Under the pieces are notes generated by a model. It searched no databases. It saw only the letters and a program-made list of their open reading frames with translations, and was not told the origin of the DNA. DNA of 27,402 bases, taken from NCBI GenBank assembly GCA_964347725.1, contig CAYGAB010000001.1, positions 1-27,402 on the forward strand, in the 5' to 3' direction. The stretch is from an uncultured Candidatus Peribacteria bacterium. GTDB taxonomy: Bacteria > Patescibacteriota > Gracilibacteria > UBA1369 > 2-02-FULL-48-14. The position numbers were made by a program, and so were the translations under genes. This document shows positions 9,552 to 20,002 of the stretch, piece by piece; position 1 is the stretch's first letter; each line of letters opens with the position of its first letter.

Positions 9552-9755
9552 ATGGAAAATGCGAATTCTCGAGAGAAAGCCGCAATGGCCCAGGCTGATA
9601 AGGATTTGGTTCCAGTTCAAGGGGCAACAATTTTAGTCATAGGTTTATTCGTAGCTACTTTTGTGGGATTGGCGTTGAATGAGGACTCAAAGGAAAGAGA
9701 TTTTCGCTCAGAAATCTGGAAACAATTAGTAATAAATTTGACTCGAAAGCCATGA
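9552..9755 (+). CDS. Small single-pass membrane protein
   Basis: 67 aa; ATILVIGLFVATFVGLAL helix; ATGA overlap with the next ORF. Confidence 0.55.
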   Translation: MENANSREKAAMAQADKDLVPVQGATILVIGLFVATFVGLALNEDSKERDFRSEIWKQLVINLTRKP

Positions 9756-10543
9756 GATCAGATCGAGTGGGCCAACTCCTTCAAACCCCTGTCGATGAAG
9801 CCGTTGAGTTGGCGCTCTCCATCCGAGCAAAGCAGGATGATTTGGATGAACTATTAAGTGGGACCTTAAATCCAGTTTTTATTGTGCCACAAGGAGTTTA
9901 TCCTGATTTTGCGGGTATTTCTAAAATTCGTGGGCAGCTTAACTTTACTATTCTCCATGGGTTTGGAGGAGAAGACGTGATTAATTTTGTCGAGAGGTCA
10001 GATGGGAATGGCGGACAAATCGTCGATTTTGGAGAGAAGTGTGTCAACGATGCGCCAAGTATGTTGCATATATCAATATCTGAGGAAGGCTTTAACGGTC
10101 AGCCCGTTTGTTTGTGGACGGTTGCCCATGGCGCCAATCCTGTGCACAGAGATTTTGGGCTATTTTTGAAAGCTTTGGAAGTGTGGCCCAACACAGGTCG
10201 GCAGCAAATCATCCGCTCGGATGCCAATGTTCCGTCTTTGCTCAAAGCCCTTCCCTTCTGTTTGTCCAGTTTTAAAAACGGGTGCGCTTTGTTGGGCTTG
10301 CCACACGCAACTTTTAAACAAAGAGCAGAAGCTTTGACGGAAGTGCTCAGACTATTTTATGCCACCAAAGGTTACGAACCAATATCGATTTCTATTGCAA
10401 AAACCCAGCAAAGGCATGCGAAGAGCATGAGGGATGAAATTGGGTATTTGGGCTTTCTCTTCAAAAGAGAATTGACAAAAATGGGGCATTCCCCACAAGG
10501 GATTGAAGAAATTTGCCAGCAGCTGGGGTTGAGGAAGGAGTAA
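9752..10543 (+). CDS. Hypothetical protein
   Basis: 263-aa ORF coupled to the upstream ORF and followed by a hairpin; no family confidently recognised. Confidence 0.65.
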   Translation: MRSDRVGQLLQTPVDEAVELALSIRAKQDDLDELLSGTLNPVFIVPQGVYPDFAGISKIRGQLNFTILHGFGGEDVINFVERSDGNGGQIVDFGEKCVNDAPSMLHISISEEGFNGQPVCLWTVAHGANPVHRDFGLFLKALEVWPNTGRQQIIRSDANVPSLLKALPFCLSSFKNGCALLGLPHATFKQRAEALTEVLRLFYATKGYEPISISIAKTQQRHAKSMRDEIGYLGFLFKRELTKMGHSPQGIEEICQQLGLRKE

Positions 10544-10552
10544 CGGCCGTCA

Positions 10553-10576
10553 AAAAGTCTGCCCGGGCAGACTTTT
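10553..10576. terminator. Perfect 24-bp palindrome, probable intrinsic terminator insulating the trp promoter
   Basis: AAAAGTCTGCCCGGGCAGACTTTT is its own reverse complement, with A/T tracts on both sides, 9 nt after the 10543 stop. Confidence 0.65.
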
Positions 10577-10586
10577 GGGAATCCTC

Positions 10587-10615
10587 TTGACTTCCGGTCA
10601 CCACAAGCGTACTGT
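10587..10615 (+). promoter_or_regulatory. trp operon promoter (TTGACT-17-TACTGT)
   Basis: -35 at 10587-10592, exact 17-nt spacer, -10 at 10610-10615 embedded in the operator. Confidence 0.75.
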
Positions 10616-10626
10616 TCGATCAGTAC
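10609..10626. promoter_or_regulatory. TrpR operator (GTACT-N8-AGTAC)
   Basis: GTACTGTTCGATCAGTAC is a near-perfect 18-bp palindrome with the same half-sites and 8-nt spacing as enterobacterial TrpR operators; directly upstream of trpR. Confidence 0.85.
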
Positions 10627-10643
10627 AGCTTAGCTTTCTCCTC

Positions 10644-10904
10644 ATGAATCAGCAGCACTTGAAAGAATTGGGCGGACTCTTGGTTGGATTGAACACCAGA
10701 GAAGAAGCGCTCGCCATGCTCAAAGATTTACTCACGGATTCTGAACTGGAATCGGTGGCGGAGCGGGTGCAGATTCTCAAGCTTCTGAGCCAAGGAATGC
10801 CCCACCGCAAGATCAGTGAAACGCTGGGAGTCAGCATTTCAAAAGTGACGCGCGGGTCCCATTGGCTACAGGCCAACCCTGCCATTGCCAGTAAAATCGC
10901 TTAA
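10644..10904 (+). CDS. trpR: Trp repressor (TrpR family)
   Basis: DLLTDSELESVAERV...GMPHRKISETLGVSISKVTRGS aligns with E. coli TrpR, including the T44/R54/R84 equivalents. ATG at 10644. Confidence 0.9.
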   Translation: MNQQHLKELGGLLVGLNTREEALAMLKDLLTDSELESVAERVQILKLLSQGMPHRKISETLGVSISKVTRGSHWLQANPAIASKIA

Positions 10905-10919
10905 TTTTTTTTACCTCAC

Positions 10920-12281
10920 ATGTACCGATCAACCAATACGTCCGTCACCCCCAAGTTCAAAAAGTTTCCGCTGGACGAACGTCTCACATTGCCAGTGTTG
11001 TTTGAACAGCTCACGGCCGATCAGCCAGAAGCATTTTTGTTTGAAAGTGCCGACAATGTGGGCGGGAAAGGCCGCTATTCTTATCTGGGTTTTGACCCTG
11101 CCAAGCGTTTTGTGTTTGAAGCGGGAGCCAAGGAGAATCCGCTGGAAATCTTGCGCCACTTTTGCCAAGAAATAGAATTCCACAAGAGTCCGGAACTGCC
11201 GCCTTTTCAGGGTGGATTCGTGGGCTATTTCAGTTATGAAGTGGGCCGACATTTTGAAGACCTGAATTTGCCCTTGGACGGAGCCAAAATTCCGGAAGGG
11301 ATTTTTTTCTTGCCTCAACAAATGGTCGCCATAGACCACAATCTCAAGGAACTATTTTTGATCGCCACCACACAAGAAGCGTTGGAAAGATTGGAGGCAA
11401 AATTCCGAAACGTGGACTTGTCGCTCAAAAAAATAAAAGCGAGTGATGAGCTCGATCGGTCAGATGAATCGGCAGCGCACGAAGACGAAGAAGCACGGTT
11501 GTTAGAAGGCATTGCCATGGCTCAAGAACGAATCAAAGCTGGAGAGATTTTTCAGGTGGTGCTGAGCCGAGGGTTCCAAAGAAAAACCAATTTAAGTCCA
11601 CTGGAGTTGTACGCTCGTTTGCGTTTGGCCTCCCCCTCGCCCTACATGTTTTTTCTGAAATTTGCCGATTTTTGCATTGCCGGCGCTTCTCCAGAAACCC
11701 AGGTGAAGATTCAAGATCGGCAGGTCATGGTGAGGCCCATTGCGGGAACTCGTCGTCGAGGTAGAACTCCGCTGGAAGATCTGGAGCTGGCTGAAGAACT
11801 GAGTCAAGACCCAAAAGAATTGGCCGAACACCAAATGTTGGTGGACTTGGCTCGCAACGACGTGGGCCGAGTGGCCAAACCCGGAACCGTGAGAGTCAGT
11901 CAGCACAAGGACATTCAAAAATTTAGCCACGTCATGCACATGGTTTCAGAAGTGCGAGGAGAACAATCTGAAGACAAAGATCTCTTTGATGTATTTCAAG
12001 CCAGTTTTCCGGCGGGAACTTTGTCTGGCGCACCCAAAGTGAGGGCCATGAAAATCATTGCCGAATTGGAAGCCAAACCACGAGACATTTATGGAGGTGC
12101 GGTGGGCTACTTCGGTCTGGACGGAAACATGGACTTGGCCATCGCCATCCGCACCATGCTCATCAAAGACGGAACCGTGACTTTCCGAACGGGAGCTGGA
12201 ATTGTGCACGACTCTCAGCCGAATTTGGAACACAAAGAGTGCCTCAACAAAGCGCAAGGAATTTTAACCGCTCTCCAATGA
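10920..12281 (+). CDS. trpE: Anthranilate synthase component I
   Basis: LFESA and SPSPYMF (Trp-feedback motifs), GEIFQVVLS, RPIAGT, EHQMLVDLARND, FPAGTLSGAPK, GAGIV. Confidence 0.95.
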   Translation: MYRSTNTSVTPKFKKFPLDERLTLPVLFEQLTADQPEAFLFESADNVGGKGRYSYLGFDPAKRFVFEAGAKENPLEILRHFCQEIEFHKSPELPPFQGGFVGYFSYEVGRHFEDLNLPLDGAKIPEGIFFLPQQMVAIDHNLKELFLIATTQEALERLEAKFRNVDLSLKKIKASDELDRSDESAAHEDEEARLLEGIAMAQERIKAGEIFQVVLSRGFQRKTNLSPLELYARLRLASPSPYMFFLKFADFCIAGASPETQVKIQDRQVMVRPIAGTRRRGRTPLEDLELAEELSQDPKELAEHQMLVDLARNDVGRVAKPGTVRVSQHKDIQKFSHVMHMVSEVRGEQSEDKDLFDVFQASFPAGTLSGAPKVRAMKIIAELEAKPRDIYGGAVGYFGLDGNMDLAIAIRTMLIKDGTVTFRTGAGIVHDSQPNLEHKECLNKAQGILTALQ

Positions 12282-13783
12282 TCCAGCCACTGAAGACCCT
12301 CATCATCGACAACTTTGATTCTTTCACCTACAACCTAGTCCAGCTTTGTGCGGAGCTGGGCGGCAATCCAGAAGTCAGGCGCAACAAGGCCATCACTTTG
12401 AAAGAAATTGAAGCTGGCAACTACACCCACATCATTTTGTCCCCCGGCCCCGGCACCCCAGAAAACCCGGAAGATTTTGGAGTGTGTGCGGAGGTGATTC
12501 AGTCGGGGTCATGCCTCGTTCCCGTTTTGGGAGTTTGCCTTGGACACCAAGGAATCATCGCAGGTTTGGGAGGGAAAATCCTTCGAGCGCCCGTCCCCAT
12601 GCACGGAAAATCCAGCCGCATTCGAGTCGATTCCACTCACCCACTTTTTTCTGGATTGGGCGAAGAGCTGGAAGTCATGCGTTACCATTCTCTCATCGGC
12701 GAGCGAGCAAGTTTGCCAGAGGATTTAGACGTGATCGCCGAAACGGAGGACGGCTTGGTCATGGCGGTGAGCAGCAAAACTCGGCCTTTGTACGGAGTGC
12801 AGTTTCACCCAGAAAGTGTGGGCACGCCGGACGGACGGAAAATCCTGGAGAATTTCTTGAACGTGAATACCGAACAACTCTTGAGGAACATGGCTCAGCG
12901 TGGCGAAAGCGCCGAAGAGTTGAGTCTATTCTTGAAGGAGTTCAAATCAAAATCGGTGCCCTTTCCTATTGAAGCGGAAGAGTCGAAGGAAGTGATGGAC
13001 ATCTGTGGAACGGGAGGTTCTGGCTTGGCTCGTATGAACCTCTCGACGACGGTGGCTTTTGTTTTGGCGGCAGGCGGAGTGAAGGTGGCCAAACACGGAA
13101 ATAAAGCGGGGTCCGGTCGCTGCGGAAGTTTTGATCTTTTGGAAGCTTTGGGAGTTCGAACGGAGCTTAGTCCTCCAACCTTGCGCCGTTCACTCGAGCA
13201 ATTCGATCTGGTGTTTTTATTTGCGCCAGCCTTCCACCCGAGCATGAAGCAATTTGCAGAAATTCGAAAAAAAATAGCGCACCGCACGATTTTCAATCTG
13301 CTGGGACCCTTGCTCAATCCAGCCAATCCGGGATTTCAGTTGATCGGAACCACCGATGCCAAGACGGCGGAAACGCTCATGGCTGTTTTGCAAAAATCAA
13401 CCGAGAAAACTGCGATGGTGCTGCACAACGAAAGCGGTCTGGACGAAGCCATTGTGCACGGCCCGACTCAAATTCTTGAACTCAAAGACGGACAAATCAG
13501 CCGATGGGTTTTAGACCCAAAATCACTTGGACTTGGACACCCTCAAGCCCCTGAAATCGACTGGAAAAAGGCAAGCCCAGTGGACACGAATGTCCAGCTC
13601 TTTGACGACTTGCTCCACAAAAAAACGCCCGGACCTTTGATGGATCAACTGCTCCTCAATGCGGCGCTCGCCTTCAAATTGCGTGGCCGAGTGGCCAGCC
13701 TGGAAGACGGGGTGACATTGGCAAGAAATCTCATTCAAAGCGGCGCTGCTTTCCAAACTTTTCTAAACCACCAATCTTTATGA
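12278..13783 (+). CDS. trpG-trpD: Fused anthranilate synthase component II (GATase) and anthranilate phosphoribosyltransferase
   Basis: [31 protein letters not shown]; then [32 protein letters not shown]. Start at ATG 12278 (ATGA overlap with trpE). Confidence 0.93.
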
Positions 13784-15603
13784 ACGCATTTTACCAAGCC
13801 ATTCACGGCAAAGATCAGATTTCCATCATTGCGGAAATCAAAAAAGCCTCCCCCAGCCACGGGCCTTTTGGCCGTCACGCCGAACTGGATTTGATTCGCG
13901 CTTACGAATCGGCCGGAGCCAGTGCCATTTCCGTGGTGACAGAAGCACCTCGTTTTCAAGGGAGCATGGACTTGCTCAGGCGCGTGGTTCAAGCCACTTC
14001 ATTGCCAGTCATTCGCAAGGATTTTCTGACGCAAACTCAAGACATAGATGAAACGGCAGAGGCCGGTGCGTCGGCGGTTTTGCTCATCGCTCATTTGCTC
14101 AGTGTTCAGGAATTGGGGGCCATGATTCGCCACGCCCTCAAAAAAAATCTCATGCCATTGGTGGAATTGCACGACCAAGCCGATGTGGAAAAAATGAAAT
14201 CGCTCGGGCAAATTCCTGGGGTGGTTTTGGGCATCAACAATCGCGATTTGCAGACCTTGAAAACGGACGTGGACCACGCCCTTTCTTTGCTCGCCGAACT
14301 AGATCCTTTTTATCCCGTGGTGGCGGAAAGTGCTTTTGCGGAGGCCTCTCAACTGGAACCCTACTTTGGAAAAGTGGACGCCGCTTTGGTGGGCACCGCT
14401 TTTTTAACGGCGGAAGATCCTCAGGCCAAAGTGACATCTTTTGTCCACGCCGGAAACAAGGCCTACTTTGGGAATTACGGCGGACAATTCGTGAACGAAA
14501 TGTTGGTGCCCGTGCTCAAAGAAGTGGAGGAAGCTTTTGAACGATTTTGCGCCGATTCAACTCAGCAAGCCGAACTCGCCGATCTGCTCAAAAACTTTGC
14601 TGGTCGAGAAACACCCCTCACCCACGCGCGCAATCTTTCGAAGGAATTGGGCTTTCAGCTCTATCTAAAGCGCGAGGACTTATTGCACGGCGGAGCCCAC
14701 AAAACCAACAACGCGCTGGGGCAGGTTTTGCTGGCCAAGTTCATGGGCAAGAAAGAAATCATTGCGGAAACGGGAGCGGGACAGCATGGAGTGGCGACGG
14801 CCTTGGCCGGAGCCATGATGGGTTTGCCCGTCAAAATCTTCATGGGATCCGTGGACATTGAACGGCAGCAGCCCAACGCCCTCCGCATGAAATTGTTTGG
14901 CGCAGAACTCATTCCAGTAGAAACGGGATCCAAAACCCTCAAAGACGCGATCAATGAAGCCCTGCGCTATTACGTGGCGCACAACCAAGAAGTCTATTAC
15001 GTTTTTGGCACGGCGGCGGGACCTCATCCCTTTCCACGTTTGGTGAGCCACTTTCAATCGGTGATCGGCAAAGAAGCTCGTGCGCAAATTTTGGAGCGAA
15101 CCGGAAAACTCCCCAATAAAATTGTGGCCTGCGTGGGGGGTGGAAGCAACGCCATCGGCATTTTTTCCGCTTTTTTGAAGGACGAAAATGTTGAGCTGAT
15201 CGGCGTGGAGCCTGCGTTGGGCGCACCTCTCCAAAATGGAAGTCCCGGCATTGTGCACGGAGCCCTTTCCTATCTCATGCAAGACGAACACGGCCAGGTC
15301 ACAGAAAGCCACAGTTGCGCCGCTGGCCTGGACTACCCCGGCGTTGGCCCAGAACACAGCTTTCTCAAAGACCAAGGCCGAGCCAAGTACCTCTCCATCA
15401 CAGACGCAGAAGCCCTGCACGCGCTCCAAGTCCTTTGCCAAAAAGAAGGCATTTTGCCAGCGCTGGAATCGTCCCACGCTTTGGCTCAAGCTCTTAAATT
15501 CAAAGGGCAATTGGGCTCAGAGGACATCGTGATCGTTAATTTGTCTGGCCGTGGAGACAAAGACCTGGCCCAAGTGAACGAACTCCTAACCCAAATCCAA
15601 TGA
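13780..15603 (+). CDS. trpC-trpB: Fused indole-3-glycerol-phosphate synthase and tryptophan synthase beta chain
   Basis: [25 protein letters not shown], then in frame [24 protein letters not shown] (PLP lysine), [37 protein letters not shown]. No stop or TrpF sequence between the two domains. Confidence 0.93.
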
Positions 15604-16367
15604 AAGACCGCTACCAAGAAACTTTTGCCAGTCTGCGCCGAGAAAACAAAAAAGCCTTCTGTGCTTTTGCCGTTTTGGGCGATCCAAATCCAGAGGAATG
15701 TCTTCAGCGAATCCAAGAAATGTTGAAGGCCAAGCCCGATATTTTAGAACTCGGCATTCCCTTTTCGGATCCAGTGGCGGATGGCCCTGTCATTCAAGCC
15801 GCCGACGAACGAGCCTTAAAATCTGGAACCACGCCAAAATCCGCTCTGCAACTCTTGTCAAAAATTCGTCTCCAAACAGAGGTGCCGATTGGACTTTTGG
15901 TCTACGCCAACACGGTTTTTAAATACGGAATTGACCGATTTTACTCTGATGCCAAAAAGGCCGGCGCGGACAGCATTTTGATCGCCGATGTGCCTTTGGA
16001 AGAAATCCAGCCCTTCGCCGATTCGGCCAAAACTCACCAAATCCATCAAGTCATGATGTTGAGTGAAAACACCTCCACCGAACGCCTCAAACAACTCGAA
16101 CGCGTGGGCAGTGGATTTTTTTACGTGGTTTCTCAGATGGGCGTGACCGGGGACCGCCAAGGCCTCAATCCAAAAGTGGCGGAGCTTCTGGCACGATTCA
16201 AGTCCAGCACCAAAATCCCACTCCTTCTGGGATTTGGCATTTCGACGTCCGACCACATCCGAACTCTGAAAAACGCTCCCGTGGACGGATTGATCGTGGG
16301 AAGTGCGCTCGTCAAAACGCCAACCCATGAGCTGTTTGAAACCTTAAACGAACTCATCCATGCTTGA
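15600..16367 (+). CDS. trpA: Tryptophan synthase alpha chain
   Basis: [19 protein letters not shown] (catalytic Glu/Asp), GVTG, GFGIS, IVGSALV. Confidence 0.97.
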
Positions 16368-16851
16368 CCAAGACGCCACCGTTTTCACTTATTGTTACTC
16401 TCGCACGGTCTTTGCGATTTTAAAACAAGCCCAGCAAAAGGGACACAAAATTCAGGTTTTGCTTCCAGAAACTCGACCCAACTTCACGGGCCGACTCATG
16501 GCCAAAGCCCTTTTGGAAGCCGAAATTCCCGTCACTTTTTTCCCCGATATCCTGTCCTACGAACAGATGAAACGCGCCGATTTATTCCTCTTTGGCGTGG
16601 ATTTTATGGCTCCAGATGGGCGAATCCTCAACAAGGCTGGAACCGCCACCTTGGTTCAACTGGCGCGCCAGCTCAAAGTCCCCACCTTTGCCTGCACCTC
16701 TCCCAAAAAAACCGTCTCCCTTGAAGCTTTTCTTGCCGCGCAAAAACTCACCCGCCCTTCCTCCGAACTTTGGCCAGACGCTCCCGACTCGCCAAACCTC
16801 ACCTTGCTTTCCCCCGCTTACGATTTGGTGGACGGAGTGGACATTTGGTAA
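16360..16851 (+). CDS. IF-2B / MtnA / ribose-1,5-bisphosphate-isomerase family protein, C-terminal Rossmann domain only
   Basis: TVFTYCYS, ETRP..TGR, IPVTFFPD, LFGVD, GRILNKAGT, VPTF match the family core; 163 aa with the N-terminal helical domain absent; 8-nt overlap (ATGCTTGA) with trpA. Confidence 0.85.
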   Translation: MLDQDATVFTYCYSRTVFAILKQAQQKGHKIQVLLPETRPNFTGRLMAKALLEAEIPVTFFPDILSYEQMKRADLFLFGVDFMAPDGRILNKAGTATLVQLARQLKVPTFACTSPKKTVSLEAFLAAQKLTRPSSELWPDAPDSPNLTLLSPAYDLVDGVDIW

Positions 16852-16922: not shown

Positions 16923-16954
16923 GCTTGACTAAACCACAATTCAGTTTATCATTT
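16923..16954 (+). promoter_or_regulatory. Junction motif copy 1 / sigma70 promoter (TTGACT-16-TATCAT)
   Basis: gcTTGACTaaaccacaattcagttTATCATtt; 25/32 identical to 17705-17736. Confidence 0.65.
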
Positions 16955-19964: not shown

Positions 19965-20002
19965 AGTGCATAGGAATTTCCTGCTCACCGGCCAATTTAA
20001 AA

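Follow-up and report, generated by a model that had tools for sequence, protein, structure and literature searches.

The trp operon of a member of the Peribacterales, within the CPR, is very probably controlled by TrpR and autoregulated, the repressor being encoded by the first gene of the operon itself. We base this reading on a 27,402-nt stretch of genomic DNA, hereafter the window, and on its comparison with orthologous loci. CPR bacteria (Patescibacteria) are commonly portrayed as auxotrophic symbionts that possess few regulators. Only a few amino-acid biosynthesis genes were reported in the first complete genomes of Peribacteria (PMC4736985), TrpR has been described as confined to the gammaproteobacteria among the Proteobacteria (PMC5343134), and our literature search found no paper linking TrpR with the CPR. 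That the locus represents a circuit of a known kind in an unusual lineage is well supported. It also appears to include an unreported detail, a second predicted operator that lacks a promoter and is placed on the start of trpE. The coordinates of all features are collected in Table 1.

Table 1. Predicted regulatory elements and genes of the trpR-trp locus, with positions counted from the first letter of the window.
Feature	Position	Strand	Details
Terminator-like hairpin	10553–10576	+	10-bp stem, A-run before, 4-T run after; −13.4 kcal/mol, z = −1.8
−35 hexamer TTGACT, trpR promoter	10587–10592	+	read in sequence
Operator 1 (predicted), GTACTGTTCGATCAGTAC	10609–10626	.	GTACT-N8-AGTAC palindrome
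−10 hexamer TACTGT, trpR promoter	10610–10615	+	embedded in left half-site of operator 1
trpR (P0001), TrpR family	10644–10904	+	86 aa; PF01371, 64.4 bits
Run of 8 T directly after trpR stop	10905–10912	+	kept in relatives with operator 2
trpE (anthranilate synthase component I)	10920–12281	+	453 aa; profile matches
Operator 2 (predicted), GTACCGATCAACCAATAC	10922–10939	.	20.3 bits, second-best in genome
trpG-trpD fusion	12239–13783	+	listed ORF; true start may be slightly downstream
trpC-trpB fusion	13780–15603	+	607 aa; 4-nt overlap with previous gene
trpA	15600–16367	+	4-nt overlap with previous gene
IF-2B/MtnA-family gene, last of operon	16360–16851	+	8-nt overlap with trpA

The operon is tightly packed, with genes that overlap or nearly abut. 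The choice of ATG 10644 as the trpR start is backed by the N-termini of orthologues (MNKQHL.., MNKEHL..), and the trpR stop codon TAA (10902–10904) is followed by 15 nt before the trpE ATG at 10920. Matches to promoter or terminator patterns inside the operon are no commoner than chance, and the next promoter-like site after its end is at 16925–16952. On the 5′ side, the upstream gene (9752–10543) is closed by the terminator-like hairpin, which delimits the trp transcription unit at its 5′ end, so that the trpR promoter starts a new unit; our terminator scanner missed this hairpin because its T-run comprises only four T. Among the operon genes we saw no trpF domain, and the final IF-2B/MtnA-family protein is truncated. 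The starts of trpR and trpE show no Shine-Dalgarno-like purine run before them (10627–10643 and 10905–10919) and are preceded by pyrimidine-rich CTCCTC or CCTCAC, with similar CTCC/CCACCACC leaders in genomes G082 and G042. A tblastn search against PLSDB, which addressed a plasmid origin, returned no match. The sequencing runs in which the locus turned up were DNA metagenomes only, and it was found in no RNA run.

A first-pass annotation of the window, made from the sequence alone, had described a TTGACT-17-TACTGT promoter ahead of trpR with a GTACT-N8-AGTAC palindrome over its −10, and we found each of these elements where it had placed them. The hexamers are separated by a 17-nt spacer. Operator 1 has perfect arms (GTACTG/CAGTAC), is self-complementary at 16 of its 18 positions, and is predicted to extend from about −13 to about +4 of the trpR promoter, leaving 17 nt (10627–10643) before the ATG. 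With 3/6 matches to TATAAT, TACTGT is a weak −10 by the E. coli consensus, which is why this promoter went undetected by a generic scanner. When up to one mismatch is allowed, GTACT-N8-AGTAC occurs once in the window, compared with 0.04 occurrences expected from shuffles; an exact match is found a single time in the 1.09-Mb genome, where GTAC itself is rare (1483 copies). A single operator match is not significant alone, because shuffled genomes reach PWM scores of 14–22 bits. Operator 1 owes its significance to its position, over the promoter of a gene for a TrpR-family protein, and to its conservation across orthologous loci.

To assess this conservation, we defined close TrpE orthologues by E < 1e-90, a threshold passed in about 22 of 151 Peribacterales genomes, almost all of which carry a trpR orthologue (40–60% identity) directly upstream. 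Fifteen orthologous trpR-trpE loci, drawn from five further families of the order and none from that of the window, were compared, and a match of 10/12 or better to GTACTG-N6-CAGTAC was counted as a site. Such a site lies within 80 nt upstream of trpR in 15/15 loci, the outcome of a test of orthologous operons that the first-pass annotation had set for its own reading in advance. The remaining ~61 kb of these loci contain ten matches, confined to three loci, and the flanks around the conserved sites cannot be aligned. Six orthologues (L041, L028, L029, L033, L027 and L026) share the window's layout, termed class I: a TTGACN-type −35, exactly 17 nt, and TAC(T/C)GT inside the left half-site. The −35 of these six loci and of the G082 trpE promoter is TTGACT or one base off, 16 nt before the operator. 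The nine other orthologues follow a class II layout, in which a TATAAT-like −10 is immediately followed by GTACTG. In both promoter classes, a bound repressor would mask the −10 together with the start site.

Derived from the PWM frequencies, the lineage motif is GTACTGnTnnAnCAGTAC, with the consensus GTACTG-N6-CAGTAC. A second Peribacterales lineage, exemplified by G040, carries trpR-trpE-trpG-trpDC-trpB-trpA behind GTACTATTGCAATAGTAC, and Parcubacteria and Magasanikbacteria MAGs contain trp operons that begin with trpR and have GTACTGGTACAnCAGTAC immediately downstream of the −10. TrpR-family genes are present in 83 of the 301 sampled genomes of the phylum, and several of those encoding TRGS-type proteins have GTAC palindromes upstream. 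A different arrangement is found in G082 (L025:1410–1500 and L102, G082:C95), where a trpR pseudogene interrupted by one TGA and one TAA lies ~0.8 kb upstream of trpE, with two small ORFs between. There, a class I promoter (TTGACT-17-TACTGT) drives trpE directly and bears two perfect operators in tandem, spaced 19 bp apart, and the same query found no other TrpR-family gene in this 95%-complete genome. L045, L039 and L033 have additional operator-like sites that match at 10–12 of 12 positions; these lie at a greater distance upstream of trpR as well as within or beyond trpE (one is GTACTGCTACAGCAGTAC at L039:3419), which suggests multi-site control in that sub-clade.

The protein encoded by trpR belongs to the TrpR Pfam family and is probably a functional TrpR. 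Its residues 5–78 align to model positions 2–76 of 88 in PF01371, and the score of 64.4 bits compares with a gathering cut-off of 27. TIGR01321, the NCBI TrpR equivalog, is the best-scoring NCBIfam model, although its 52.1 bits fall below the cut-off of 67.25; TIGR02531 (YerC/YecD) scores 34 bits and is likewise below its cut-off (42.2). Using AF2 with an alignment of 16 orthologues, we obtained a six-helix model with a pLDDT of 93.8. It has the all-helical TrpR fold, in which helices D and E make up the helix-turn-helix, and every one of its 41 best PDB matches is a TrpR or TrpR-like chain. E. coli TrpR leads these matches (TM 0.80–0.81, 31–32% identity), and the HisR-like structures 3KOR, 3G1C and 3FRW rank behind it by E-value. 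The family match, the E. coli TrpR-like fold and the packed trp genes bear out the first-pass view of trpR as the first gene of a trp operon, and proteins of this kind are already labelled “Trp family transcriptional regulator” in public annotation.

Residue conservation was examined in the 13-member clade of the window protein, in E. coli TrpR numbering. T44, E47, R54, R69, I79, T83, R84 and G85 are invariant in all 13 members, I57 is kept in 11 and V58 in 8. The invariant residues include all four positions that we take, from E. coli structures, to form the tryptophan pocket (T44, R54, R84 and G85), whereas S88 is not kept, being W in the window protein and A in most relatives. Four of the six DNA-contact residues listed for TrpR (R69, I79, A80, T81, T83 and R84; PMC9413887) are also retained, namely R69, I79, T83 and R84. 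At the two others, A80 varies within the clade (S, D, A or E) and is S in the window protein, and T81 is replaced by K in 12/13 clade members, the window protein among them.

The gaps of 17 nt and 15 nt on either side of trpR leave no room for an attenuator, and the leader and junction fold no better than shuffles (z = +0.96 and +0.53). On this point we concur with the first-pass annotation, as the locus contains no structure that could form one. A trpL-type attenuator and a T-box were both rejected on account of the small gaps, the lack of structure and the lack of an Rfam family (no match at E ≤ 1). The end of trpR was also considered as a Trp-sensing leader and discarded for the window, given a single Trp codon located 13 codons before the stop, positive fold z-scores and the lack of any hairpin adjoining the T-run, both in the window and in 12 relatives. 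Neither the scanner nor folding identified an intrinsic terminator after trpR.

We then scanned the whole 1.09-Mb genome with a PWM built from 20 sites of relatives, the window's own sites being excluded. Only operators 1 and 2 score 14 bits or more; operator 1 is the best match in the genome (21.9 bits), and the next best after the pair reaches 13.1 bits. The first-pass annotation had proposed a genome scan for further sites: its exact pattern occurs just once, whereas the PWM adds operator 2, which that annotation had missed. The first base of operator 2 is the G of the trpE ATG, so the site overlaps the start codon, 313 bp downstream of operator 1. Beyond the locus, nothing exceeds 13.1 bits. 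The shikimate/aro operon near 20000, about 3 kb downstream, has no PWM site, and the scan found no aro or transporter targets in the genome. The genome-wide TrpR regulon appears, from these matches, to be the trpR-trp locus alone.

A site at the trpR/trpE junction is present in 9/15 relatives. It lies 17–23 nt after the trpR stop in compact loci, and its placement relative to the trpE start ranges from overlapping to 60 nt upstream. In compact relatives, it stands behind a conserved T-run, and 7–9 T follow the trpR stop in L041, L026, L029, L037, L030, L034 and L035, all of them loci with operator 2; the T-run of the window has no hairpin before it. In the window, part of operator 2 is coding sequence, and the site is identical at 17/18 nt to the homologous G133 codons, so part of its conservation could reflect coding constraint. 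The distances between operators (304–317 and 380–383 bp) show no consistent helical phase and hence give no support to a fixed loop geometry. The trpE gene of G133 itself (L026/L068, G133:C7) is unusual in that its 482-codon frame contains no ATG, GTG or TTG within the first ~110 codons and has ATA where the window has ATG, followed by the same YRSTNT codons. This could represent a non-canonical start, a recent loss of the start codon or a sequence error.

The 6/15 relatives without operator 2 carry a terminator-like hairpin at the same place instead. In L038, L031, L036, L045 and L039, the trpR-trpE spacer contains a hairpin with a GC stem and a T-run that leaves insufficient space for a promoter behind it, and in 3/5 of these loci a Trp codon occurs towards the 3′ end of trpR. 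This spacer hairpin may be a regulated terminator. The two arrangements hint that limiting read-through from trpR into trpE could be a theme common to the junction site and the hairpin.

We propose the following mechanism. A sigma-70-type promoter (TTGACT, 17 nt, TACTGT) would drive a polycistron of trpR, trpE, trpGD, trpCB, trpA and the IF-2B-like gene. The 86-aa TrpR-family protein, a predicted dimer, would bind L-tryptophan as a co-repressor, and the loaded repressor would occupy the 18-bp operator 1, which contains the −10 and the likely transcription start. Occlusion of the promoter would exclude RNA polymerase, so that the operon and the repressor gene would be switched off together, and because trpR is the first cistron this would amount to negative autoregulation. 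Control would be of the classical co-repressor type, with no attenuator or other RNA layer. Operator 2, of similar predicted strength and with no recognisable promoter of its own, would most likely act as a roadblock to polymerases that have escaped operator 1, lowering the enzyme genes more than trpR, or as a cooperative site. More tentatively, and with some doubt on our part, we suggest that the two-operator layout is a distinct design of one Peribacterales trpR-trpE clade, in which the junction site would serve as a Trp-dependent roadblock that uncouples basal repressor synthesis from enzyme synthesis.

It is unlikely that operator 2 instead forms part of a TrpR-controlled internal promoter of trpE, which would divide the locus into two transcription units. 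Such an arrangement has parallels, as gammaproteobacterial trpR and trpE have separate operator-bearing promoters (PMC5343134), a TATAAT follows the junction site in L028, where the spacer is long, and the trpE of G082 has its own promoter with operators. Operator 2, however, already overlaps the trpE ATG, its first base lying 2 nt beyond the A, and any transcript initiated downstream of the site would therefore begin within trpE. Moreover, neither the window nor its compact relatives contain a −35/−10 of either layout at this place, having sequences such as CTTAAT, CTAATT and GTAATA instead, and the scanner finds no promoter on the + strand at operator 2. A different objection accepts both the repressor and the operator as real and questions the effector, which might be indole, anthranilate, another aromatic compound or none rather than L-tryptophan. 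The family does include sensors of other ligands, such as HisR/YerC, which responds to histidine (PMC9413887), the window protein scores below the TrpR equivalog cut-off, and it carries W at S88 (A in most relatives) and K at T81. We nevertheless consider another effector very unlikely: the trpR gene is always linked to trp genes; T44, R54, R84 and G85 are invariant, while the HisR-like paralogues in the order carry other residues at L43, P45, I79, G85 and S86; and a separate HisR-like gene in the genome leads hisZ-hisG.

The most radical alternative, that the palindrome is a chance or non-regulatory element, such as a restriction-type GTAC motif or the site of another factor, and that the operon is constitutive, is strongly disfavoured, to the point of being highly improbable. 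The exact pattern is expected about 0.1–1 times per genome and shuffled genomes reach similar PWM scores (20–22 bits), yet the site persists in every orthologous locus despite protein identities of 40–60% and unalignable flanks, and its register with the promoter is fixed. In addition, the two strong matches in the genome both flank trpR, and GTAC is otherwise rare.

A TrpR-repressed, autoregulated operon, the reading that we favour, would place a near-complete trp pathway in a Peribacterales member under a recognisable feedback circuit of the ligand type. Its operator motif can be read across many uncultured genomes, and the locus offers an easily testable pair of transcription factor and operator from a lineage without genetics. 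It could also serve as a marker for CPR lineages that make tryptophan rather than scavenge it, and the natural variants of operator and recognition helix (A80S and T81K with CTG vs CTAG) are suited to the study of TrpR specificity. If the two-operator design is true, it would, together with the hisR-first operon described below, make repressor-first TrpR-family operons a main means of amino-acid control in these reduced genomes.

In a TrpR protein tree, the window TrpR groups with those of G072 and G133, which belong to other families, and the genomes of the window's own family have other TrpR clades or none. This pattern would fit a transfer of the operon between members of the Peribacterales. 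With about 90 columns and E. coli TrpR on a long branch, however, the tree is too short to demonstrate such a transfer or to resolve where the CPR clade stands with respect to E. coli TrpR; we therefore make no claim about origin.

Comparison with HisR separates the two TrpR-fold repressors of this genome. HisR proteins (YerC/YecD) are small TrpR-fold repressors that bind palindromes of roughly 20 bp and are often autoregulated and often encoded first in their operons (PMC9413887). A second PF01371 gene, on contig C12 of the same genome, G000 (L023:1938–2222, 83.6 bits), is HisR/YerC-like and groups with the HisR-like proteins in a clade with high support (100/99). As the first gene of its operon, it is followed by a HisRS-paralogue (hisZ-like) gene and hisG (L023:1–2290, minus strand), which indicates that the two paralogues have separate jobs, and the promoter of this hisR-first operon, TTGACA-17-TATGTT, runs into the partly palindromic GTTCTAACAAGCTAAAAC. 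The HisR-like paralogues of the order have Y at the Q68 position, T79 and TRVA, whereas the window protein lacks this pattern and has TRGS; it also lies outside the HisR-like clade and is linked to trp rather than his genes.

The gammaproteobacterial TrpR motif is TGTAcTnGTnnACnAgTACA (PMC9413887). The lineage motif shares with it the outer GTACT, T8 and A11, whereas the inner CTAG is replaced by CTG...CAG. Operator 1 conforms to the TrpR pattern of two palindromic GNACT half-sites, 8 bp apart, that overlap the promoter of trpR and the trp genes. The E. coli trpR operator GTACTCTTTAGCGAGTAC (MG1655) has the same outer GTACT/AGTAC arms with 8-bp spacing, and the trp operator CGAACTAGTTAACTAGTACG (MG1655) lies over the trp −10, just as operator 1 overlaps the −10 of trpR. 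The enterobacterial likeness proposed in the first-pass annotation is accordingly right for the outer pentamers, the spacing and the −10 overlap, and does not extend to the inner CTAG, which is not kept. The same annotation noted that the recognition helix differs while the operator is conserved: A80S and T81K are present, and the outer arms are kept. One may speculate that the inner change from CTAG to CTG...CAG goes with the changes at A80 and T81.

E. coli TrpR, with operators at trpR, trpEDCBA and aroH (PDB 1TRO, 1TRR, 1ZT9), has the same fold as the window protein (TM 0.80), and the TRGS motif of the recognition helix and T44, R54, R69 and R84 are common to both. As trpR and trpE form the conserved core of the TrpR regulon in gammaproteobacteria (PMC5343134), the predicted autoregulation and the trpR/trpE core would be further points of likeness to the E. 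coli system. Unlike in E. coli, the repressor gene of the window heads the biosynthetic operon rather than forming a separate unit, and the operon has no trpL attenuator. Other differences are S and K in place of A80 and T81, an inner half-site of CTG/CAG instead of CTAG, the second operator without its own promoter, and the absence of aro or transporter targets from the scan. The 86-aa window TrpR is also shorter at its N-terminus, where the alignment shows 13 residues of E. coli TrpR without a counterpart.

Chlamydia trachomatis provides the trpR-first precedent that the first-pass annotation had invoked, and the trpRBA operon does have this order, trpR and trp genes sharing one transcript from a promoter that TrpR represses. 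Between trpR and the enzyme genes there is a second palindrome, and transcripts from the trpR promoter terminate at it (PMC6504234, PMC7755916), so that a second regulatory palindrome at the junction of trpR with the enzyme genes is common to Chlamydia trpRBA and the window. The chlamydial intergenic region, however, is 348 bp long and contains an alternative promoter, and the protein that binds its palindrome is the iron repressor YtgR, binding of TrpR there not having been observed (PMC6504234, PMC7755916); the junction in the window is 15 nt with a TrpR-type site. Finally, the chlamydial operon is a salvage remnant (trpBA), whereas that of the window encodes a near-complete pathway.
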